Source of the DNA: Bdellovibrionales bacterium | GTDB lineage: Bacteria; Bdellovibrionota; Bdellovibrionia; Bdellovibrionales; UBA1609 | DNA: 64,000 nucleotides | NCBI GenBank assembly: GCA_027317865.1 | Contig: DAHVQG010000011.1 | Span: 43,079-107,078, forward strand | Reading direction: 5' to 3' | Position numbers and translations under genes: made by a program | The notes under the pieces: generated by a model | What the model saw: the letters and a program-made list of their open reading frames with translations, nothing else | Database searches by the model: none | Told to the model about the DNA's origin: nothing | Shown here: piece after piece, positions 52,320 to 64,000 of the stretch | Layout: each line of letters opens with the position of its first letter | How positions within the stretch are numbered: position 1 is the first letter of the stretch

Positions 52320-52393
52320 ATTATTTTGAAAACATTACGGATTGACAGATCCGCCCGTCTTCGATGATGGTCCCTAGGTCATTGGGGGGGGAT

Positions 52394-53989
52394 ATGCGAC
52401 AAACCGTTTTTCTACCGTATCGAGTTTTATTTGCCTTTTTCACAATTGTACTACTGTTGGGCTTGGCGCCGTCGGCATTCGCCCGCGAGAAATCCTGCCC
52501 CGCCTTACTCGAAAATAATTCACCGTTTGTCAGCGGCTCAAGTGAACTAAAGACCAAATGGGTTGAACAAGAATTACAAAACATCGAAAATTCGGCTGAT
52601 CCGGAACGAAAAATGGTCCGCCAAGCTAATCAAGAGCAAGGCATCGATGCTTTGTCTCTCAACCGTGAAATCATTCAAAATCATAATTCGAATTATACCC
52701 ATAAAATTGAAACGGCATGCATAACCAATCAATATCAGTCCGGCCGCTGTTGGTTGTTTGCAAGCCTCAATATGTTACGCCCCAAATTATTGGCGGCAAA
52801 CCTCGTGGACGAGAAGTTCGAATTCTCCGAAAATTACCTCTATTTTTTCGCTATGCTTGAAAAATCGAATTCATTTTTAAAGACCAGCGAAACCGCCGTA
52901 AGAAAATATGCAAATAATCGGCGAAGACTTTTAAATTACATAAATAGATATGCGTACGTTGGTGACGGCGGCTATTATCAATGGTTTGTATATCTTGCTG
53001 AAAAATATGGCCTTGTACCGAAATCGGCGATGCAAGAGGCTTCTGGGTCCGTTGATACCGAGGCCTTAACGGCGGATCTTCAGCGTAAATTGCTTCTCGT
53101 AACGGAACAAATGCGTCAGCGCGTTTTACAAGGCGGTTCAGAAAGCAAAATAGATACGGACCTTCGTGCCATTCGAGAAGCCGGCCTTCGCGACGTCATG
53201 GTTATGCTGGTAACGCATTTGGGGACACCTCCACAAGAATTTAGTTTTCGAATTGCAAAATCAAACGAGCAAACGGGCAAAAAAAATAGTAAAACCAAAA
53301 AAAGCAAGAGTAGTCCGCTCGAAATAGAAAAGGCTGTTGTCAAAAAGTTCACGCCTCAAACATTTGCGCGGAAATTCGCAAAATTCGACCCTAATGAGTA
53401 TGTAACTCTATTTTATAATCCCCGGTTTGCCCCAAACAAATTTTACGAATTGACGAGGTCAAAAATCGGTATTGAAAAAGCCCCCAAGACCCAACATGCG
53501 TATTCTGGGCTAAACTTGCCGATTGAACGGATTGAACAGTTGATCGTTAAATCAATAGATTCGGGCCAATCGCTCTATTTTGCGTCGGACGTGTTAGACA
53601 GCGCGGATTTTTCACCTAAAAACCCAGTGAAACCGGTATCAGGTATACTTCATCCAAAACTTTTTAACCACGACCCTATATATGGTTTTACTGGCGACAG
53701 ATCTTTATACCCGCCACGCCGGTTTCTCGATTTTTATCGACTGATCGCTCCGACTCATGCGATGGTCATCGTCGGTTACGACCGCCCAGATCCTCACGCA
53801 CCGGTAATTAAATTTTTAGTTGAAAACTCATGGGGCAAACGAGTGGGAGATGAAGGTTATCTTCATATGTACCGCGAATGGTTGTACCAAGATGTCTTCG
53901 CAGTTACGATTCGCCGTGATTTGCTCAACCCCGAAGAGCAAAAGGCGCTTCGCTTACCACCCACAAAAGTGAGAGAGTCGGAGTGGTAA
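52394..53989 (+). CDS. Secreted C1B cysteine aminopeptidase (PepC/bleomycin hydrolase family)
   Basis: Signal ending AFA; NQYQSGRCWLFA, DGG, THAM, VENSWG. Confidence 0.88.
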   Translation: MRQTVFLPYRVLFAFFTIVLLLGLAPSAFAREKSCPALLENNSPFVSGSSELKTKWVEQELQNIENSADPERKMVRQANQEQGIDALSLNREIIQNHNSNYTHKIETACITNQYQSGRCWLFASLNMLRPKLLAANLVDEKFEFSENYLYFFAMLEKSNSFLKTSETAVRKYANNRRRLLNYINRYAYVGDGGYYQWFVYLAEKYGLVPKSAMQEASGSVDTEALTADLQRKLLLVTEQMRQRVLQGGSESKIDTDLRAIREAGLRDVMVMLVTHLGTPPQEFSFRIAKSNEQTGKKNSKTKKSKSSPLEIEKAVVKKFTPQTFARKFAKFDPNEYVTLFYNPRFAPNKFYELTRSKIGIEKAPKTQHAYSGLNLPIERIEQLIVKSIDSGQSLYFASDVLDSADFSPKNPVKPVSGILHPKLFNHDPIYGFTGDRSLYPPRRFLDFYRLIAPTHAMVIVGYDRPDPHAPVIKFLVENSWGKRVGDEGYLHMYREWLYQDVFAVTIRRDLLNPEEQKALRLPPTKVRESEW

Positions 53990-54199
53990 ATTTATCGCGA
54001 CTTGACCAGTAAATTTGGGCGGCCCGGAACAAAAGGGCCGACTAAAGTTTGTACACCTTCGTGTTTTTGTGACGTCGTTATTTAAATTTCTTAGCCGGTT
54101 TATTTGACAAATTTCGGCACAGCCTTGCAAATTTTGGCAGTGCTGCTCATTACTGTCGCCTCATGAATCGCGCTGTAAACGTCTTTCTACGGCTCGTGA

Positions 54200-54215
54200 T
54201 GGCGCTTGCTTTGCA
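54200..54215 (+). promoter_or_regulatory. Putative sigma54 -24/-12 promoter
   Basis: TGGCGC-TTGCT-TTGCA upstream of ATG 54347. Confidence 0.5.
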
Positions 54216-54346
54216 AGATTTGTCGCAACAGTAAGCATGAGTATGTGTTGTTTTTGTATTTGTAAAACATACATATTGATTGTCGGAGCGGCAATCCGTT
54301 AATATCGCGCTGCAATCAATGTGAATAAGGAAAGGGAGAAACTGTT

Positions 54347-55033
54347 ATGAAAAAGCACGTAATCTTCGCGGCGATCATCGCAAGTATGATTGGTACCGTC
54401 GCGTTTGCGCAAGAAGCTACTGTTGAAGATGCAGGATCGGCAGCGCAACGAGCTGCAGAGCATATCGAACAAATGCGAGGCGCAATCGGCGTTAATGCTG
54501 CCGCCGGCGTGAGTGCTGTTGGTGGCGCTGCTGAAGCCGCTCAAGGTGCCCTTTTCTCAAACAACACGAATGGCATTGCAAAAGCGTTAATCGGCCAGTC
54601 GGTTCATGTTGCAGTCGGTGGACAGTGCACGGGCAACAATGCAATGAACCAATTAACCCCAGCTCAAAAAGCCGTTATGTTTAAAGCTGAAAACATGGGC
54701 TTAGTGAATGATCCGTGCTTGGGCAAATCTGATGTATCCGTTCTCCCCGAAGTTTTGCAGATGAAACAAGCTCAAGAGCAAACGCTCGCGAATGCCGGTT
54801 TTTCAAATGTGAATGACCAAGGCGTTACCGAGTCACTCAGAGAAGCAATAATGAACTCCGAAATCAAAGCCATTTATGCCTATAGAGTCGCCCATCACGA
54901 AGCGGGTGCGACCCTAGAAGCCGCTGCCGAGACGGAAAATGAACTTCTCAACCACACGCCTGTCTGCTGGAATACAAAGGCGCAGGCCCAAGCGGGTGAA
55001 CAACTGTTACACGCTCGCTACGGGATCGACTAA
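54347..55033 (+). CDS. Secreted Ala-rich hypothetical protein
   Basis: GGGAG SD, MKKH...AFA signal peptide. Confidence 0.75.
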   Translation: MKKHVIFAAIIASMIGTVAFAQEATVEDAGSAAQRAAEHIEQMRGAIGVNAAAGVSAVGGAAEAAQGALFSNNTNGIAKALIGQSVHVAVGGQCTGNNAMNQLTPAQKAVMFKAENMGLVNDPCLGKSDVSVLPEVLQMKQAQEQTLANAGFSNVNDQGVTESLREAIMNSEIKAIYAYRVAHHEAGATLEAAAETENELLNHTPVCWNTKAQAQAGEQLLHARYGID

Positions 55034-55070
55034 AGGTCGAAGAAGTATATTTAATTAAAAACCTTTCCGA

Positions 55071-55100
55071 AAAAGGCCAGCCCCACGTGGTTGGCCTTTT
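55071..55100 (+). terminator. Rho-independent terminator (possibly bidirectional)
   Basis: AAAAGGCCA...TGGCCTTTT followed by TGTTTT. Confidence 0.75.
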
Positions 55101-55158
55101 TGTTTTGTAGTGAAATTTGACAGTTGAACATTACGTTTACACAAATCTACCGCGTTTT

Positions 55159-55174
55159 CGGCCCCGGTTTTGCA
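55159..55174 (+). promoter_or_regulatory. Putative sigma54 -24/-12 promoter
   Basis: CGGCCC-CGGTT-TTGCA upstream of ATG 55221. Confidence 0.45.
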
Positions 55175-55220
55175 CCCATCTAAAGCCAGTTGCGTTTTAC
55201 GCGCAAAAGGCACGGTTTAA

Positions 55221-58200
55221 ATGCTCTCGAAACGGCTCTATCGTCTTATTTTAACGGCCCTTTTTACTTGGTCATCCATCGCAATGGCGACGCCCATCTG
55301 CGTGCCGGGTGAAAACGGCACATTAGCAGTAGCGCCCTTGAGCGATAGCTCGTCACAATTGTTAAACGGTTTAGCTACCGAAACAAAATCAATGCTTGAA
55401 CTGGCAACCAACGCCAGATTCAATTTATTTGAAAGCCCCGTCTCGCCTGCTACGCAACCCGCTTTGACCGTCGAAAGCGAACTCCAATCCATACGTAATC
55501 AAATCAATAACGAACTAATCCAATTTGCAAGCTCGAACAATTCGCCATTCAATCCCGCCTTAGCTCCAAAACTTCATAATTTAATAGCGCAATATTTAGA
55601 AGCCGCATTCGATTTTACCGAAATGAGCGCCTACAGTAACCCGTATTCAATAACCGCGTTTTTACCGGCGCAGCAACGAGTCGCTCTTCAGATACCCACT
55701 CCCGTGTGGATGATTTTGAATCTTGAAAAGCCGATTCCATTTGCCGCGATTATTCAGTATCTGCCTTCCGCTGTTCGTGTCAGTTTGTCGCCTGAATCTA
55801 TTTATATAGCGCTTCGAGAAGTGGCCGCGCGTTCTGAAATGTTGCAAATGCAGCATAAGGCGATTTTCGAGGTGACCCGTTGCGCGCTTTCAGACGCTAT
55901 GGTTGCACAATATTTCGCGCAAGAATCGATTCGGGGGATTGCTCCTGAACAAATTCAACTACCTATCGCCCCTGCGACTCCGGCTTGTCTGGCCCTGCCA
56001 ATTGGCGAACTTGAAAATCTACAAAGACATCGACTAGGCGAACAAAGCGAAGGGCAATTTCGAAGTGGGCTTATTGAACAAACGTTTTCTCCTGATAAAG
56101 TTGAATCGCCGCAACTCATTCAGAATCTAAATAACTTCAATCTTAACGGTCCCGACCTTCTTGCTCTTATCTGGAGTCCCGAAACCTCGACGGACATCAA
56201 CCCCAACTTAAACGCGCAAGGAGCCGGCATCATCGACGCACAGCTTGCACAAGCGGTGCAAAGTGCCGAAAAAAATGTCGCGTACTTTTCCCCACTGATG
56301 AACATGACCGCCTCGCCCGCGTTTCAAGAAATCATTAACGGGATGATTTCGTCGTGCAATCTCTCGTATTCGCCGCAAAATATATCCGCAATGTCAGCGG
56401 CTGCGACTCAAAAAATGAATGCAGATCTTTTGTACAAACTCGATCTTTCAGAAGGCGTTCTCGGTCTTAATCTGGGCGATTTTGTTAAATTTTACACTGG
56501 TCATCTCGCAAGTCTTTCGCAACTCGATCCCACCTCCGTGCGAAATGCACTCAGACAAATGTTGATTTACAAAAAGTACTCGGACGCGCGAGAAATTTTG
56601 CAGTCGTTTTTTGAACTCAAAACGTTTTCTGAAACGCCTTCGGCCACGCAGCTCGTCGACCGGCTGAGCGGCCGTCTTTACAAAATCGCAGTCAGCACCG
56701 TCGATCAAGCTCTCGCTCAACCTGCGGTTGCCCAATGGTTTAACAATATCGTTAACTTTGTGATTTCGGCGAAGGCCAATCAATCTAACGATTCAAACCC
56801 GACGTTTTTACCTCAGCGTCAGTTTGACCGGAGCGCTGTTCAACTCGCGATGATCGCCAATTTTGTACACAATCCGAAAACTCCACTTAGCAAGATTTTA
56901 TTTTACCCCAATCTAATGGCCGAAACTCGACAGGCCGCGCTTAGCACCGTTTTGACAGGTCTAAATAAGGACTATTTTAAATTAACACTCAACCAAACTA
57001 CTCCCGCTGAAAAAAAGGCTGTTTGGCAGGTCGTAAAACAAAAGATCAACCAAAAAGCACAATTTATGGGCACGAACTGCCACACCGATAGCAAATTTGT
57101 TCAAGACGCAAAAGTCGTGGCCGCGTGGGCTGAAGCATTTACGATTCAAATTCCGCAGTCGCAAAAAAGTATATATCATGAGCAATGCTCCCTCATGAGT
57201 TCTACGGCAAAGATGATGGGGCTTGAACTGCCGCAAGTGCCGCAAACTTTACAAGGTATTGTGCCGGTCTTAAATCAGGTTTTGGGCGCCAGACAAGCGC
57301 AAAAGGCTATTGCGACTTACCGCGAACTTTTAATTAAACAAATTCTATCTTCAACTCGCTTTTTACTTATGCGTTACTCTTGGCATCAAAAAAATAAAAC
57401 TGCACCTTATGTTTACCAAGTTGTCGCGGAAGCGAGCCAAAACCCGGATAAACAACGAGGGATTATCAACTGGTCCTTGCAGTACAGCAGTTCGCAACTT
57501 GCAAAAACCGCAAAAAAATATTTGATCGCACACGACATGGCCGGATTAACCGGGCTTTTTAAAGACTCGAACGGCGCTGCGGGGATGCTCGGCGATGCCC
57601 CTGCGGCACAACAAGCCGTAGTAGCAGAGGGAGATGCGGCACGTCGCTATGATCCAAGTGAAATCAACTATGAAATCTATCAGGGCGCAAAAATGGATTT
57701 TATATCTGCGATCCAGTGGATTTGGGGAATGCAAATTCTTGGAGCATTCTGGGGGCGCGCAGCCGTTTGGTCGGCTCGCCTCGATGATTTTGCCGGCTCA
57801 CTTTTTTCAACGCCTGCAATAATGGGGCAGCTTGGCATCGATTGGGCCGTTCAGCGCGCGCGCATCGGCGAAAATTCTGGCATCAAATTGTCCAACATAA
57901 ACGGAATGTATTGGTCACAAGGTTTTAAAGCATCAGGTGTGGCGTCGTTTATGAACGATGGAATGTACAGTCGCGAAACAGCTATTTTAGCGCAAGAAAA
58001 TCATCAGGCTCGTGTCCAAAAATATGTGGATTACGGCATAGGCGGCGTCGTAGCGGGAGCGTCAGCTTTTGCCACATTCGGCGATCAAATTGCAAATCGC
58101 ATGGTCCAATCGGGCCGAATTCCCTTTACTGTTGCCAGAAGGATTCGTGCGTTAAAAATGGCGGAGCTATCGGGTGACTCTGAAAAAGTCACTCGAATCG

Positions 58201-58595
58201 AAGAATCGATAAGTAAATCCGCGTCCCGGCAAGTTCGTCGTTTGGGAACTGACATGCGCGCTCTTGATAATCCAGCCAGCTTTCGACTTTCAGCGCTGAA
58301 AAGCGGGCTACGCAAGGTGCAGTTTTCACCCGAAAGTACGCAAGAGCAAATTTTTAGAGCGCAAGAAGCCTATCAAAGGATTATTAGAAACATTGGCAGA
58401 AGAGTTGAGGTTGCCGAAGCCATTGGCAGAAGAGCAAATATTACCGATATTTCCACAAAAGCCAGTGCCGCACGCTACGTTAAAATTTACGCAAACTCCT
58501 TAAGAGTTGGCGAAGACGGCACCGCACTCACTAGTCAGGAACTGATTCGACTTCACAATGCCGCAGTTGAACTCGCAAACGGCGGTGTAAAATGA
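55221..58595 (+). CDS. Very large secreted helical hypothetical protein with C-proximal hydrophobic segments
   Basis: 1124-aa ORF, signal ending AMA; FISAIQWIWGMQILGAFW and YGIGGVVAGASAFATFG segments. Confidence 0.8.
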   Translation: MLSKRLYRLILTALFTWSSIAMATPICVPGENGTLAVAPLSDSSSQLLNGLATETKSMLELATNARFNLFESPVSPATQPALTVESELQSIRNQINNELIQFASSNNSPFNPALAPKLHNLIAQYLEAAFDFTEMSAYSNPYSITAFLPAQQRVALQIPTPVWMILNLEKPIPFAAIIQYLPSAVRVSLSPESIYIALREVAARSEMLQMQHKAIFEVTRCALSDAMVAQYFAQESIRGIAPEQIQLPIAPATPACLALPIGELENLQRHRLGEQSEGQFRSGLIEQTFSPDKVESPQLIQNLNNFNLNGPDLLALIWSPETSTDINPNLNAQGAGIIDAQLAQAVQSAEKNVAYFSPLMNMTASPAFQEIINGMISSCNLSYSPQNISAMSAAATQKMNADLLYKLDLSEGVLGLNLGDFVKFYTGHLASLSQLDPTSVRNALRQMLIYKKYSDAREILQSFFELKTFSETPSATQLVDRLSGRLYKIAVSTVDQALAQPAVAQWFNNIVNFVISAKANQSNDSNPTFLPQRQFDRSAVQLAMIANFVHNPKTPLSKILFYPNLMAETRQAALSTVLTGLNKDYFKLTLNQTTPAEKKAVWQVVKQKINQKAQFMGTNCHTDSKFVQDAKVVAAWAEAFTIQIPQSQKSIYHEQCSLMSSTAKMMGLELPQVPQTLQGIVPVLNQVLGARQAQKAIATYRELLIKQILSSTRFLLMRYSWHQKNKTAPYVYQVVAEASQNPDKQRGIINWSLQYSSSQLAKTAKKYLIAHDMAGLTGLFKDSNGAAGMLGDAPAAQQAVVAEGDAARRYDPSEINYEIYQGAKMDFISAIQWIWGMQILGAFWGRAAVWSARLDDFAGSLFSTPAIMGQLGIDWAVQRARIGENSGIKLSNINGMYWSQGFKASGVASFMNDGMYSRETAILAQENHQARVQKYVDYGIGGVVAGASAFATFGDQIANRMVQSGRIPFTVARRIRALKMAELSGDSEKVTRIEESISKSASRQVRRLGTDMRALDNPASFRLSALKSGLRKVQFSPESTQEQIFRAQEAYQRIIRNIGRRVEVAEAIGRRANITDISTKASAARYVKIYANSLRVGEDGTALTSQELIRLHNAAVELANGGVK

Positions 58596-60334
58596 ATAAT
58601 TTTAAACATATTCTGCTTCGGTTGACAGCACTCGCATTGAGTTGCACTTTAGTCATCAATTTCGGTTTACCGACAAATGTCATTGCTGAGCCGGGCGCTC
58701 CCATTGCGTTGCCTGACGGGGAAACTCCAGCAACAGCAGCAGCCGGTCAGTTCGGGCAATTTCATATTTTATTAAATAATTATTTTAGGGCGTGCGCGAA
58801 ACAAGCGCTACCCGAGCAAGCTGTAATGGCCAGTTCATTTGTTCAATCCGTGATGAGTAACATGAGTTTTGATTCCGCTACGCAAACGGCGATTCAAGCT
58901 GCCGCAAATCAAACGGCGCAACCATCAACAGCCAAGCAAAAAGTCGCGCAGGTGTATGACGCGTATACCGGCCCACTCGCGCAAGCGACTTCGGCGCTTT
59001 ATAGCAATATGCTCAGTGGAACCATTGCCGATTTTAATCATAAAGCGGTAGTACTGGGTGGCGTATTAGACTTCGATCCGAAATCAGCACCTTGCGTTTA
59101 CAATTTGTGGAATGCCATCAACGAAAATTATCAAAACGATGCGAGTTTTCGAAAGCTCAAAATCGACACGAATAAATGGCATCAGTTTTTTCAAGGTGGC
59201 AAGTGGATCATCGTCGCAACAGCGCTTGTTGCCATAGCACGTCCGCAGTTTTGGAAATCCACAATCGAAAACGTCGGATCACTCGCAAGATCTGTAACAA
59301 ATTCTATTAGTAAACTTGATTGGCGCGTTGGCGACGAGACTGTCACCTCAGAAGTCGATACCGCCGGCGATTCGAGCAAAATAACAGACCGGCCAAAAAC
59401 TGAGGCTGAAATACAAGCCTTTGAAGCGCAAAAAGAATTAGACAGCATGAACGCCGATCTCAAACAAATGTCGAGCCTATTTCGCGAACAAGGCGTCACC
59501 GGCGCTGACGAGCGAACAAACGCTAAGCTTTTACAGGATGCGCTTGCGGGCGATAAAGCTGCGGAAAAACTATACGCCGAACGCACGGGCCTTAAAATGC
59601 TCTATCCGCCGAAACCGTCGCGATCCGCACTGTTCGTTCGTGAAAAACTATTATCTCGATTCTCCGCTCAGAGCATGCGAAAGGTATTGATCGGGCTAAC
59701 AAAATTCGCGGGGATTTATACCGCAGGTGGCATTGCCAACATCGGTCTGCAAAAAATTTGCGTTCAAATCCCAAAATCAACTAACTATCGCGGGCCCCAG
59801 ATTCTTGGGTGTAATTTTGGCGAACGCCTCGTGCCCCTCGATCAAGGAGGTGCTCCCGATTTGTTTCATCGCGGCTATGCGGCAATGGCCGCTCTCAATT
59901 ATACCTGTCACGTCGACCAATTCTCAAAGGGCGTCGCTTCTCTAATAAACATGCTTCAAAATAAACGCGCGCTTACACCTCAACAATATAAACTTGTAGT
60001 TGCTAACCGCGATGCGGCGCTGGCCCAACTCGCGAGTTATTTCGAGCAGTATTTATGGTTATCATCCAAAACCATTTACCGGTATCGATGGATAGCGCCG
60101 AAAGAAGTTCGTTATGATAAAAAATCCGGTGAAATTTGGCTGAGGTTGCCCGTTGGCCGTGACACTTTAACAGAACACTTTCCGTGTGAAGAGTACGCTG
60201 GTATTGCGCACCCGAATCCGCTCATGATCAGTCTTGACTACTCGAAAATGCAGCTGGGCAAAACCTACGCCCTTCTTGAAGCCTCGACTAAGGAGGTACC
60301 GCTTGAACCGCCGGCAATCGCGCCCCAAAAATAG
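58592..60334 (+). CDS. Secreted hypothetical protein with internal hydrophobic segments
   Basis: ATGA overlap with upstream gene; signal peptide; WIIVATALVAIA and FAGIYTAGGIANIGL segments. Confidence 0.8.
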   Translation: MNNFKHILLRLTALALSCTLVINFGLPTNVIAEPGAPIALPDGETPATAAAGQFGQFHILLNNYFRACAKQALPEQAVMASSFVQSVMSNMSFDSATQTAIQAAANQTAQPSTAKQKVAQVYDAYTGPLAQATSALYSNMLSGTIADFNHKAVVLGGVLDFDPKSAPCVYNLWNAINENYQNDASFRKLKIDTNKWHQFFQGGKWIIVATALVAIARPQFWKSTIENVGSLARSVTNSISKLDWRVGDETVTSEVDTAGDSSKITDRPKTEAEIQAFEAQKELDSMNADLKQMSSLFREQGVTGADERTNAKLLQDALAGDKAAEKLYAERTGLKMLYPPKPSRSALFVREKLLSRFSAQSMRKVLIGLTKFAGIYTAGGIANIGLQKICVQIPKSTNYRGPQILGCNFGERLVPLDQGGAPDLFHRGYAAMAALNYTCHVDQFSKGVASLINMLQNKRALTPQQYKLVVANRDAALAQLASYFEQYLWLSSKTIYRYRWIAPKEVRYDKKSGEIWLRLPVGRDTLTEHFPCEEYAGIAHPNPLMISLDYSKMQLGKTYALLEASTKEVPLEPPAIAPQK

Positions 60335-60452
60335 CGAAGAACGTCACCTTAATGTTAAGAAATTTGACAGTTTTGAAAAGACGTCTCGTTTTCAATGCGC
60401 GCGAGATGATATTCGATATATTGAAAGACAAGGTTTAGAGCGCTTTTTTATT

Positions 60453-60468
60453 TGGAACGCAATTTGCG
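60453..60468 (+). promoter_or_regulatory. Putative sigma54 -24/-12 promoter
   Basis: TGGAAC-GCAAT-TTGCG upstream of ATG 60482. Confidence 0.5.
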
Positions 60469-60481
60469 TACAAGTCCTAAC

Positions 60482-62311
60482 ATGAAGGCATTGTTCACTA
60501 TTTTCTTATCCCTATCAATGATTCTCGGGCCATTCGAAACTACGGCCCTCGCGCAGAGCTCCCCAAGCGCCAATGCCCAAACTTCTTTGTATGGCAAAAA
60601 CTTGAATCAGTACGAGCACGAACAAATCTTCTTAGAGTCATTGCGCGATCGCACCCGGCTTTTTGAAATGATCAACTACAAATTATTTGACGTTGAAAAT
60701 CAGTGCATACATCGCAACCCATTAAACTGGAGTCAAATATCAATCGTGAATCAGGGCGACTGCAAGCAAATCGTCAGCACCATGTACGAGCAAATTCACG
60801 CGAATTATCCGGATGTGCGGATACTCTATGTTATTTACAATTTACTAAATAGCGCAAAGCGGTTTATTTTGCCTCGCCTCATCCAAAGCGAAAATTTGGC
60901 TTTTGGTACCACTCACGCTGGCGCCGCGATCGACCACTTTTTGCACCCCACGGGTTCAGTGCCTGAGCCACTAAAGTATTTAAGTTTTATCGACCCGCTT
61001 GAAGGTTTGTTGCAATTTAAGTGGTCCGGGTACATGGACGTCACGCCCTTGCCATCCGACTACCAGCAAGCAGCGACAAATTATCCTTATGGTTCGTCAT
61101 TTACCGACTATATGGAGAACTATTGCCACACTTTTATAACTTCTCATCCAGCAGATGCCCGAGGGGTTCAAAATCCGCAAGCCATCTGTTCTCAGTTCCG
61201 TTTAGTATACAATACCCAAACCAAATCGTTTTCGTTTCCGCTGACCGGGCAGGCTCGTAATTCTTACGGTCAAATTTTAACAACTGAAGCTGAACGCAAT
61301 TTATTTTTTAAAATTTACGATTATCTTGTCGCGAATCTCGGCGCGATGAAACAAAATGCGCGACAACAGTTATTACGCGTCATTCGTACTACACCTTATG
61401 TGATTCTGCTCAAATCTGCGAACCCTACGCTCACACAACTCAAAAATGCAGTTTTGCGGATCGACGGGGCGGCACTTTCTTCCGCTAATAAATTTGAACG
61501 GGAATATTTCATGTGGCTAAATGAAAAGAATCAGCCCGTCGACCCACGCGACGTTGCGAATTTGAACAGTATTCGCGAGGTACCTAAGCCGTACAATCGG
61601 GCCGCTTACATGAAACTTTTAGATCGGCAAGAAGTCGTACTCAATTTACTAAAATATCCGTCGATCGATATGATCGAAGATCCCGCAAATTACGTCGCAA
61701 TCGCAAAACATCTGACACGTGAGCGGGCCGCAAACCTTAAAAGCGAAAATCGTTGGATTAATGCCGGCCTACTTGTTGGCACTGTGGCCGTGGGTACAGT
61801 CTGTGGGCTAACGGTTGGAGCACTCACGAAAAACCCCGAACTGGCAAGCAGCAGTTGTGCCGTGCTAACCGAGGTCGCGAATTTCTCGCTGTTTGGTTAT
61901 TTCTTATGGAATTCATACAGCACTCTCAACAACGTTTTTGCTGACGTCTTTGGGAGTCAGCAAATCGGTTCGCTGCACAGTTACGGTCTCAATCGCTCTG
62001 ATTTTGCAAAATATGACCCGACGGTCACAGATCCGCAGTTTAATGTCCATGAGCGAATGCTCGCAAATGTCGACATGCTCAACGAAGCTCAACAGAACGT
62101 ATTATGGAACTGGGCGTTTTTAGTTGGCGGCTATGCACTCGCCGGCCTTCAAGAAAGTTTGTGGAAGAGCACTAAAGTCGTTGTTAAAGAAAAAGTCTTT
62201 CGCGGATTACTTCAAAAGTTAACAAAACGGCGACTTGAACGGGCAGCGGAAAGGGCGGTTCAAATTTCGAGCGAACACTCCGTCCCAACTACGAATGTGC
62301 CGGCATTGTGA
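60482..62311 (+). CDS. Secreted hypothetical protein with C-terminal hydrophobic hairpin(s)
   Basis: MKALF...ALA signal; INAGLLVGTVAVGTVCGLTVGAL, VANFSLFGYFLW, WAFLVGGYALAGL. Confidence 0.8.
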   Translation: MKALFTIFLSLSMILGPFETTALAQSSPSANAQTSLYGKNLNQYEHEQIFLESLRDRTRLFEMINYKLFDVENQCIHRNPLNWSQISIVNQGDCKQIVSTMYEQIHANYPDVRILYVIYNLLNSAKRFILPRLIQSENLAFGTTHAGAAIDHFLHPTGSVPEPLKYLSFIDPLEGLLQFKWSGYMDVTPLPSDYQQAATNYPYGSSFTDYMENYCHTFITSHPADARGVQNPQAICSQFRLVYNTQTKSFSFPLTGQARNSYGQILTTEAERNLFFKIYDYLVANLGAMKQNARQQLLRVIRTTPYVILLKSANPTLTQLKNAVLRIDGAALSSANKFEREYFMWLNEKNQPVDPRDVANLNSIREVPKPYNRAAYMKLLDRQEVVLNLLKYPSIDMIEDPANYVAIAKHLTRERAANLKSENRWINAGLLVGTVAVGTVCGLTVGALTKNPELASSSCAVLTEVANFSLFGYFLWNSYSTLNNVFADVFGSQQIGSLHSYGLNRSDFAKYDPTVTDPQFNVHERMLANVDMLNEAQQNVLWNWAFLVGGYALAGLQESLWKSTKVVVKEKVFRGLLQKLTKRRLERAAERAVQISSEHSVPTTNVPAL

Positions 62312-62383
62312 TTTTTGAAAATGAGGATTGCAGTTATGAAAAAGATTTTTGAAACGAAGATACAAGAAACAAAGGGAACGAAA

Positions 62384-64000
62384 ATGAACCGTCACTATGC
62401 GCTCTTTCTAATCGCGACAGTCTTTGCGTTCGGCATGTTGAGTTCCAGTCGAAGCTATGCGGGTGATGCACCTGAATTAGCAATCGGCCAAGGCATCGTT
62501 AATGTCATAACGGAACAGGCAACCGACATCGAAAATGAAGGCGGTCCCGTTAAGGCAATGGTCAATGCAGTAAAAAAACTCTTTGGCGGCGCGAAAGCGA
62601 ATCCGGCTGAAGACGGTAAGCTCAACGCCATAAAAAATGATTCCAGCACTTCGCGTGAAGCCTCCGATGAAGAAAACGGTGATACCGCAAAAACCGGCAA
62701 TTCTGGTGAGCAAGGACCGTCAGCAGGCTCAACAAAGGATAAGATTGTTGACGAGGTCGCAAAGGTAACCAACGGAGCATTCAAGGATCAATGGGTCGCG
62801 GCAATGAACGGAGAGTTGACGCCGGCTATTGGCAGATCTACGGAACTCGATAACGTTGCGGTTTTTGCACGAAGTCCAGAGACAAAACGCGGGATTGTTT
62901 TATTTGGCCCAACCGGCGCCGGTAAATCGGTGATATACGATGGTTTTCAACAAGAAATTATCGCTGGCGACGTGCCCGGAATCTCGAGCAACTCACGCGA
63001 ACTCGAATTTGATTTTGCGCAAATGAAGACTCCCGAAGAATTTGAGGATTATCTAACAAAAATTAAAGATTTGATAACACAACGAAAATTGCCCGGCATG
63101 AACAAAAAAGCGGGAGAAGAAAATCCGCACATATTTTTGCGCGGCAAAAATGCGGAACTTTTCGGCAAGCCCGATAGAGACCAACAAGCGGCCATGCCAC
63201 CCTTCGATCAATACTACGGTGCGGCTCAAAAGGTTTTCGGCAAAGATGCCACCTTTTTAATTGAAATACCCGGTGCCCAAGATATCGACCCCGAAACCGG
63301 CAAGCCTAAAGCCACAACAGAGGCTTTGACCACGGCATTTCCGTTTCTCAAAAGTAAAGGCTGGCGTTTTCAATTTGTGGGCGAAATGGGTTTTACCCAG
63401 TCAAAAGAAGCTCTGAGCGAATTCATAAACAACCTCGAACGTAAAAATGGCGTTACAATATCTGATGAAGTGGTCAATTTTGCCGACCAAATTTGCCGAC
63501 GAGTCTACGTGGACAAAGTCCAGCCCGGCTGTACAGCTTATCTACTTGAAGAAGCCATCGGCCGAAACCTCAGAATGTTGCGCAAAGGCCGCGCCCCGAT
63601 ATTAGCTGAAGATTTGTACAAACAAAAAGAGAAACTTGTTGAACGACTTCAGCACATGCAATCACTGACTGGCCGTTACGCGCGGGAACAAGCTGAAAAG
63701 CTCCCGGGCCAAATCAAAGAGATTGAAGATGAAATCGCTAAAATCGAAGCCTATACAAATCGAATGGCTGAGGCGTCCAAAAAATTAAAAGAAGGACGAA
63801 AACTTCAAGATGACCTCACACTTCTTATCGCAAAGCTCAAAGCCGAACCTTCGCAAGCGGCAAAACTTCGCGGCGAGATTGACTCCCTAAAAGAAAAAGT
63901 TGCGTCGCTTAAAGAAATAGAAAAAGAGGCTCGAACTCTAACTAAAGAAGATTTAGCGGTCCAAGCTCACCACGACACAAAGATTTCGTATCTTGAGATT
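62384..64000 (+). CDS. ClpB-like AAA+ protein with N-terminal signal peptide (partial, runs off window; not in ORF track)
   Basis: My translation: MNRHYALFLIATVFAFGMLSSSRSYA signal; GELTPAIGRSTEL; Walker A GPTGAGKS at 62906-62929; EEFED; GVTISDE...YVDKVQPG...LLEEA; coiled-coil M-domain; in-frame ATGs also at 62321 and 62336. Confidence 0.8.
   Translation, partial: MNRHYALFLIATVFAFGMLSSSRSYAGDAPELAIGQGIVNVITEQATDIENEGGPVKAMVNAVKKLFGGAKANPAEDGKLNAIKNDSSTSREASDEENGDTAKTGNSGEQGPSAGSTKDKIVDEVAKVTNGAFKDQWVAAMNGELTPAIGRSTELDNVAVFARSPETKRGIVLFGPTGAGKSVIYDGFQQEIIAGDVPGISSNSRELEFDFAQMKTPEEFEDYLTKIKDLITQRKLPGMNKKAGEENPHIFLRGKNAELFGKPDRDQQAAMPPFDQYYGAAQKVFGKDATFLIEIPGAQDIDPETGKPKATTEALTTAFPFLKSKGWRFQFVGEMGFTQSKEALSEFINNLERKNGVTISDEVVNFADQICRRVYVDKVQPGCTAYLLEEAIGRNLRMLRKGRAPILAEDLYKQKEKLVERLQHMQSLTGRYAREQAEKLPGQIKEIEDEIAKIEAYTNRMAEASKKLKEGRKLQDDLTLLIAKLKAEPSQAAKLRGEIDSLKEKVASLKEIEKEARTLTKEDLAVQAHHDTKISYLEI

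Follow-up and report, generated by a model that had tools for sequence, protein, structure and literature searches.

A lineage-specific set of five predicted exported proteins, including a ClpB-derived ATPase, in Bdellovibrionales

Background

Bacterial AAA+ unfoldases are regarded as cytoplasmic proteins, since the periplasm and the outside of the cell are held to be without ATP. What, then, would a ClpB-type ATPase with a predicted signal peptide do when it is encoded beside four further genes for predicted exported proteins in a Bdellovibrionales bacterium? Here we address this question for a stretch of 64,000 nucleotides from such a genome (G000:C2:43079-107078), referred to as the window, whose end is also the end of contig C2. 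The five genes, at the 3′ end of the window, are denoted g1 to g5, with g5 encoding the ATPase. The system is best explained as an operon set specific to one lineage of Bdellovibrionales and controlled by sigma-54, which would specify a five-protein apparatus assembled outside the cytoplasm.

An extra ClpB-derived protein with one intact nucleotide-binding domain

A profile built from 7 g5 sequences aligned in one stretch with residues 159-827 of ClpB (1qvr; E 1.6e-104), while its match to Plasmodium HSP101 (6e10/6e11) was weaker (E ~5e-69). The order of the first nucleotide-binding domain (NBD1), the coiled-coil middle domain and the second nucleotide-binding domain (NBD2) is that of ClpB, a class I Hsp100 protein, and PF07724 was detected in all six g5 sequences that include NBD2. 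On the other hand, the ClpB N-domain (~150 residues) is absent from g5, with a leader and a low-complexity linker (72-140 residues) in its place. Judged from these alignments, g5 is a ClpB-derived double AAA+ protein without the N-domain.

The catalytic motifs of the two domains have fared differently in the six g5 orthologues. The NBD1 Walker A lysine is kept in 5/6 and the Walker B Asp-Glu in none; in the window itself, likewise, NBD1 has kept Walker A and lost Walker B. In NBD2, Walker A, Walker B, the sensor-1 Asn and the Arg finger are each kept in 6/6. The pore-loop Tyr of NBD2 is kept in 5/6, being lost (NLVG) in the copy on contig C4 that continues the window's gene, and the sensor-2 Arg is kept in 3/6, the losses falling in three sequences of the window's own genus. 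NBD1 is predicted to be unable to hydrolyse ATP, with the catalytic motifs of NBD2 intact. Thus g5 resembles ClpB/Hsp104 in its domain order, PF07724 and intact NBD2 motifs, and differs from them in the missing N-domain, the lost Walker B of NBD1 and its being encoded with four predicted exported orphans.

The part of g5 within the window, scored as a partial sequence, reached 41.7 bits against the ClpB equivalog model TIGR03346 (cut-off 1232.1) and 36.1 bits against the ClpV/TssH model TIGR03345 (cut-off 884.95). The source genome has a canonical ClpB too (1353.2 bits), g5 being an extra copy, and in addition a ClpA/C-type protein and two giant Clp-like open reading frames (ORFs). These giants, of 1450 and 1163 aa (G000:C37:77378-80191 and G000:C22:93229-95175), have signal-peptide-like N-termini; by such signals, three Clp-type ATPases may be exported by the source genome. 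Unlike the giants, g5 has an ordinary ClpB length and four partners of its own. A special C-terminal docking tail on g5 was considered and rejected, as the tail aligns with the C-terminal strands of ClpB itself.

Export signals and invariant cysteines

Signal peptides were called with a crude rule for Sec leaders, based on the charge of the n-region, the h-region and the residues at -3/-1. Of 37 orthologues across the five families, 33 passed, the five proteins of the window among them, in agreement with a preliminary description of the window, which had assigned signal peptides to all five. Three of the four misses look like over-long ORF starts, and the fourth, g1 of L015, fails the charge rule only. 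In g5, 6/6 orthologues show positive charges in the n-region, then a hydrophobic core and an AXA-like site. All five proteins are predicted to be exported via Sec-type leaders.

Each of the four partner families has invariant cysteines, namely C94 and C124 in the C-terminal part of g1, C256 and C379 in g2, C439 and C532 in g3, and C75, C94, C215, C236, C441 and C459 in g4. Their presence in each family fits folding in an oxidising compartment.

Conservation, gene order and divergence

Co-inheritance was examined in 109 genomes of the same GTDB family. We detected g1 in 9 genomes, g2 in 11 (12 with a deeper profile, which adds G014), g3 in 12, g4 in 10 and g5 in 9 (counted at E<=1e-100); the same genomes recur from gene to gene, and 8/109 have all five together. 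Outside the genomes holding g2, only one weak g3-like match was found, in G011. It lies in a 501-aa ORF (G011:C1:197048-197824; E 3.9e-8) of a 1.6-Mb genome in which g1, g2, g4 and g5 were not detectable. The five genes are inherited together as a lineage-specific set. The preliminary description had placed a Clp-type AAA+ protein in an exported system, a proposal to be abandoned if the genes were not co-conserved in other genomes; they are co-conserved, and the ClpB match and the signal features in 6/6 g5 orthologues likewise speak for it.

The order g1-g2-g3 is kept across relatives, with g2-g3 overlaps seen in both near and distant genomes, and g4 adjoins g5 in 10/10 genomes having both, in either orientation. 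It is g4 that moves: it has the same orientation as the other genes in the window, G075 and G121, whereas it is inverted and divergent from g5 in G004, G005 and G006, and in G007 its place is ahead of g1. The relative on G075:C34 is annotated as a hypothetical protein of a Bdellovibrionales bacterium. When the source genome is compared with G005 and G006, which belong to the same genus, identity is 28-39% for the five cluster proteins and 70-75% for four flanking genes; by these identities, the cluster appears to evolve far faster than the neighbouring genes.

Beyond the family, relatives are few. The g2 profile matched 70 of 1,835,955,588 representatives at E<=0.001, and in a sample of the phylum it had matches in 19/401 genomes and 15/203 genera. 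A word-index homologue search with g2 returned only g2 itself, and a related-locus search with the single g2 returned no relative. Matches of the profile outside the family were weak and fell in the C-terminal third of g2, in ORFs of mostly ~850-1600 aa. Among 11 distant loci, 7 have a recognisable g2-like ORF, and in 6 of these 7 a g3-like gene comes next on the same strand, with an overlap in 4; a clear g5-type gene was found in G014 only. When 21 signal-peptide proteins from the distant loci were compared with g1, g3 and g4 by hhalign, the best probability was 14.9% (a 618-aa protein of L140 against g4). On these grounds, the g2-g3 pair appears to be an old core, thinly spread across the phylum, and the g4-g5 pair an addition within the family.

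The orphan proteins g1 to g4

The preliminary description recognised no enzyme family in the first four proteins, and neither did we. Pfam and NCBIfam gave no meaningful family for g1-g4 and no toxin family at E<=1, PADLOC and PHROGs gave nothing beyond a 13.7-bit PbeC row for g3, and profile searches against all solved chains gave nothing at E <0.06. ESM Atlas look-ups of g3 and g1 returned a best score of 0.76, which is chance level. No relation of the g2, g3 and g4 profiles to one another was found by hhalign.

After its signal peptide, g1 has an N-terminal part of low complexity, rich in Ala, Gly, Ser and Thr, which is followed by the C-terminal part with the invariant cysteines. The idea that g1 is an EXP2-like pore subunit was rejected on its sequence, with its low-complexity N-terminus and no amphipathic helix.

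The model of g4, made from 7 sequences, is almost all helix (predicted local distance difference test, pLDDT, 62.0; predicted template modelling score, pTM, 0.54). No other segment of the cluster is as hydrophobic as the one in its long hairpin, H401-448/H452-490, whose loop lies between the invariant Cys441 and Cys459. Foldseek returned no match at E<=0.001 (best E 0.46), and the best VIA-align match, a generic three-helix bundle (Z 10.2, root-mean-square deviation 2.9, 101 residues), is under the level that is meaningful for helical folds. The model of g2 residues 680-1124, made from 14 sequences, is all-helical (pLDDT 65.9, pTM 0.41), with a confident terminal domain at ~969-1119 and with its hydrophobic stretches in a middle part that is poorly defined; its best Foldseek match was a designed repeat protein (E 4.1e-3) and its best Z was 8.0, to a 70-residue hairpin. 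As modelled, both g4 and the C-terminal part of g2 are helical with no convincing fold match.

The earlier statement that the three middle proteins are mainly helical thus holds, in the models, for g4 and for the last 445 residues of g2. Hydrophobic segments far from the N-terminus, which it had given to each of them, are strong in g4 and modest in g3 (residues 198-217, Kyte-Doolittle 1.33), while in the window's g2 no distal 19-residue window reaches 1.2; a segment of at least 1.4 is present in 6/8 g2 sequences. Across orthologues, the internal hydrophobic segments recur at equivalent positions. Of the membrane-inserting complex suggested in the preliminary description, what stands is that these conserved helices would allow insertion, the g4 hairpin most of all.

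A protein-handling machine outside the cytoplasm and its alternatives

We tentatively favour an extracytoplasmic, ATP-driven protein-handling machine that would work at a membrane, most likely that of the prey, with a logic like that of PTEX. In such a machine, the helical proteins would associate with or enter the membrane, g4 foremost among them with its hydrophobic hairpin and flanking disulfide, and hexameric g5 would dock on its helical partners and thread or extract polypeptides with ATP. It would act where prey ATP could be reached, either on or in the cytoplasmic membrane of the prey or within prey that has been invaded. As the hydrolysis residues of NBD2 are kept over deep divergence, the motor should act where ATP is present; if the leader is cleaved, this place is not the predator cytoplasm; and as the bacterial periplasm is held to lack ATP, it would be a place where prey ATP is within reach. 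Entry of the predator protein PopA into the inner membrane of the prey has been reported, as has an early collapse of the prey proton-motive force (PMC12228718).

In PTEX, as outlined in the available text of PMC7355975, the ClpB-type HSP101 acts beyond the parasite membrane with an orphan adaptor of ~1000 residues and a small pore protein that has a conserved disulfide. The likeness to our cluster, within what that source describes, lies in a ClpB-type unfoldase with predicted export, in signal-bearing partners without homologues, one of them of ~1000 residues in PTEX, and in conserved disulfides. The difference is that HSP101 has an N-domain, whereas g5 has none, has a dead NBD1 and is closer to bacterial ClpB. 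The resemblance is best taken as one of design, not of membership, and the PTEX-type logic would have been reached independently. A bolder version, in which the cluster is a bacterial PTEX counterpart and the predator installs g5 and the four orphans at the prey cytoplasmic membrane and pulls proteins across or out of it with prey ATP, is in our view unlikely; if true, it would be an ATP-driven protein translocation machine working outside the cell that makes it.

Several observations weigh against a machine of this kind. The pore-loop Tyr is lost in the window lineage and the sensor-2 Arg in the genus, and given those losses the g5 motor may be poor at threading or may work in another way. 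In 30 of the 35 genera of the family, the system was missing by the first g2 profile, and since most of them lack it, it is not a general requirement of the family's lifestyle. Profiles of g1-g4 showed no likeness at E<=1 to any PTEX chain among the solved chains, which include 6e10 and 6e11, and no homologue of EXP2 or PTEX150 was found among g1-g4 at that threshold; g1 in particular has no EXP2-like amphipathic helix. Finally, the hydrophobicity of the internal segments in g2 and g3 is no more than moderate, and those of g2 sit in low-confidence parts of the model.

The alternative that survives best, although we consider it rather unlikely, is a complex of the predator's own envelope, with g2-g4 in the inner membrane and g5 as a periplasmic scaffold or ATP-independent holdase for remodelling or quality control. 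It would agree with the recurrence of the internal hydrophobic segments at equivalent positions and with the envelope-sugar genes near the cluster (UDP-glucose dehydrogenase and Bac_transf), and the dead NBD1 in 6/6 orthologues, together with the losses of the sensor-2 Arg in the genus and of the pore-loop Tyr in the window lineage, looks as if ATP use were relaxing. However, Walker A, Walker B, sensor 1 and the Arg finger of NBD2 have been kept in 6/6, which points to continued ATP use. The Cys pair flanking the g4 hairpin loop fits an oxidising compartment on the side of the loop and not a cytoplasmic loop, and such fast divergence would be unusual for housekeeping envelope machinery.

The need of an intact NBD2 for ATP could also be satisfied by a trans-envelope machine powered from the cytoplasm, in which the g5 leader would be an uncleaved anchor, the ATPase would be cytoplasmic and g1-g4 would be its periplasmic or membrane parts. 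The h-region is indeed long in some g5 orthologues (e.g. residues 9-43 of L032, Kyte-Doolittle 2.4). Yet 6/6 g5 orthologues are positive before the hydrophobic core and have an AXA-type site after it, by which the bulk of the protein is predicted to be outside, and a low-complexity linker of 72-140 residues follows the leader. We regard this arrangement as distinctly improbable.

The preliminary description had likened the cluster to toxins of the Hbl/Nhe type. A secreted multi-component alpha-helical pore-forming toxin against the prey, acting in the manner of Hbl, Nhe or YaxAB and with g5 as an accessory chaperone, would account for exported helical proteins with conserved hydrophobic helices, for the g4 hairpin, for translationally coupled genes and for fast divergence. 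To our knowledge, however, the known toxins of the ClyA/Hbl/Nhe kind need no AAA+ motor. No ClyA-family chain was among the matches listed for the g4 and g2 C-terminal models in four structure searches (pLDDT 62.0 and 65.9, respectively), and no Pfam toxin family was found. In the available text of PMC6162564, the ClyA-like toxin components share one five-helix-bundle frame; the family (ClyA, YaxAB/XaxAB, Hbl, Nhe and AhlABC) resembles the cluster, as far as that text goes, in its exported helical proteins, hydrophobic helices and adjacent genes, whereas g2, g3 and g4 are mutually unrelated, are far larger (580-1124 residues, components of the cluster being two to four times larger) and are linked to an AAA+ motor. 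The likeness to Hbl/Nhe was not upheld, and we give a toxin only a slight probability.

The probability is just as slight for a role at the cell surface, as adhesins, a coat or a surface layer, with diversifying selection acting on the proteins and the ClpB-like protein serving only their assembly. Such proteins would suit the extreme divergence, the polymorphism of the g5 region between strains and the low-complexity Ala/Gly-rich region of g1, and also the putative separate transcription of g1 up to a strong terminator, which an abundant structural subunit might have. Against them, Pfam and NCBIfam showed no repeats, S-layer families or beta-rich adhesin domains in the cluster proteins, the g4 and g2 C-terminal models are helical bundles, and the strict g4-g5 pairing suggests a working partnership.

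Sigma-54-type promoters and transcription units

Three sigma-54-like motifs in the intergenic gaps had been pointed out in the preliminary description, and we found them at 54200, 55159 and 60453 (Table 1), with sites recurring in the upstream regions of relatives. Matching used the -24/-12 consensus for sigma-54. A comparable site lies 5′ of g1 in 7/7 genomes examined, at varying distances, 5′ of g2 in 6/7 and 5′ of g3 in 0/7. In the case of g4, both sequence and distance (-29 to -32) are kept in the window, G005 and G006, with g4 on the opposite strand in the latter two. A loose form of the pattern showed no enrichment across the window (78 matches vs 68.3 expected). With GG/GC-anchored sites, for which the genome background is 0.21 per kb per strand, 18 of the 32 orthologous upstream regions from the 7 genomes were positive, compared with ~0.066 per region or ~2 in total expected; those at -283, -288 and -11 among the 18 may be chance.

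Both G005 and G006 have a sigma-54-type site before g5. Its counterpart in the window, where g5 closely follows g4, has degenerated, as if g5 were read through from g4. In all, sigma-54-type promoters are predicted to precede g1, g2, g4 and often g5, and the cluster reads as three putative transcription units, g1, g2-g3 and g4-g5. The source genome has an rpoN fragment at a contig edge and 15 Sigma54_activat (enhancer-binding) proteins, and no activator gene was found beside the cluster. A 784-aa gene further downstream was considered as a sigma-54 activator and rejected, with only a weak PilZ match.

Three further observations concern the upstream regions. The 14-base word GAAATTTGACAGTT is present at 55112-55125 and 60359-60372, ~105-120 nt 5′ of g2 and g4. 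TTTGACA is found at 54103-54109, 5′ of g1, and a word similar to GAAATTTGACAGTT stands before g2 in G005; these words may be an activator site or a sigma-70 -35-type site. Before g4, no Shine-Dalgarno sequence is visible in 60453-60484, and the spacing of 15 nt between the -12 element and the ATG is identical in G005 and G006; a leaderless or almost leaderless g4 mRNA is possible.

The locus, the assembly break and neighbouring genes

Our ORF calls agree with the five co-oriented genes of 228, 1124, 580, ~609 and >538 aa in the preliminary description, all five being on the plus strand, and with the ATGA overlap it had noted. In this overlap the ATG of g3 is at 58592 and the stop of g2 at 58593-58595; g3 is predicted to be translationally coupled to g2. 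The longest ORF of g4 is 60452-62311 (619 aa from TTG), and that of g5 is 62315-64000 (562 aa from TTG), open at the window end, with the ATG at 62384 as the likely start. The GC content of the cluster is 0.45-0.49 and that of its surroundings 0.42-0.51. No paralogues of g1-g4 were found elsewhere in the source genome.

Table 1 Features of the cluster, in positions of the window
Feature	Position	Strand	Description
g1	54347-55033	+	228 aa, predicted exported protein
g2	55221-58595	+	1124 aa, predicted exported orphan, signature protein of the system
g3	58592-60334	+	580 aa, predicted exported orphan
g4	60482-62311	+	609 aa from ATG 60482 (start common to orthologues), predicted exported helical orphan
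g5, first 539 residues	62384-64000	+	signal peptide, linker, ClpB-type NBD1, start of coiled-coil middle domain
g2 residues 680-1124, C-terminal third	57258-58592	+	segment with phylum-wide conservation
g4 residues 425-490, hydrophobic helical hairpin	61754-61951	+	Kyte-Doolittle peak 2.03
Sigma-54-type element 5′ of g1	54200-54214	+	TGGCGC-N5-TTGC, 1 mismatch, 147 nt before ATG
Sigma-54-type element 5′ of g2	55159-55173	+	2 mismatches, 62 nt before ATG
Sigma-54-type element 5′ of g4	60453-60467	+	TGGAAC-N5-TTGC, 1 mismatch, ends 15 nt before ATG
Terminator-like hairpin after g1	55070-55101	+	13-bp stem and T-run

The end of contig C2 falls within g5, and the NBD2 part of the gene lies at an end of contig C4. 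The last 495 bases of the window (63506-64000) match G000:C4:81220-81714 at 90% identity, with the overlap in frame and 45 of the 165 codons differing (30 synonymous and 15 non-synonymous). On C4, the g5 frame holds the coiled coil and the second AAA+ module and is followed by an aldehyde dehydrogenase gene; in G005 and G006, g5 is a single gene of ~900 aa followed by the same aldehyde dehydrogenase. One contig, from run X2, is identical to window 63778-64000 and extends 3843 bases past the window end, and the contigs of other runs at the break are fragmented and polymorphic, with, for example, 54 differences in 932 bases. None of the 7 runs listed is an RNA run. Given the in-frame overlap, the unbroken g5 in G005 and G006 and the X2 contig crossing the window end, it is most likely that C2 and C4 adjoin and that the assembly broke at a strain-variable stretch. 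The two were kept as separate contigs in the analysis.

The envelope-sugar neighbours of the cluster are a UDP-glucose dehydrogenase and a Bac_transf sugar transferase. Just 5′ of g1, at 52364-53989, the window has a peptidase C1-like gene of the PepC/bleomycin-hydrolase type (PF03051, E 8.2e-71) with a hydrophobic N-terminal leader, and the Bac_transf gene is found at its place in G004, G005 and G006. On the 3′ side, the 784-aa gene mentioned above (L003 9398-11752, on the minus strand of G000:C4) is preceded by the genes for aldehyde dehydrogenase and PNP oxidase. G006 has this gene too (70.6% identity), and the N-termini of ORFs in G007 and G041 resemble it by eye.

Implications

Our literature searches, in which the sources were mostly abstracts, found no exported ClpB-type ATPase or PTEX-like system described in bacteria, and the main text of PMC11656739 does not mention ClpB, AAA, signal peptide, pore-forming or unfoldase. 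A conserved export signal together with a live NBD2 would mean either that there is a site with ATP outside the predator cytoplasm, for example in the invaded prey, or that a ClpB scaffold is used without ATP, and either outcome would be new biology. The g1-g4 families are candidates for new folds, with g2 represented by ~70 sequence clusters among 1.84 billion representatives. The cluster may also offer a handle on how Bdellovibrio-type bacteria deal with the proteins and membranes of their prey.

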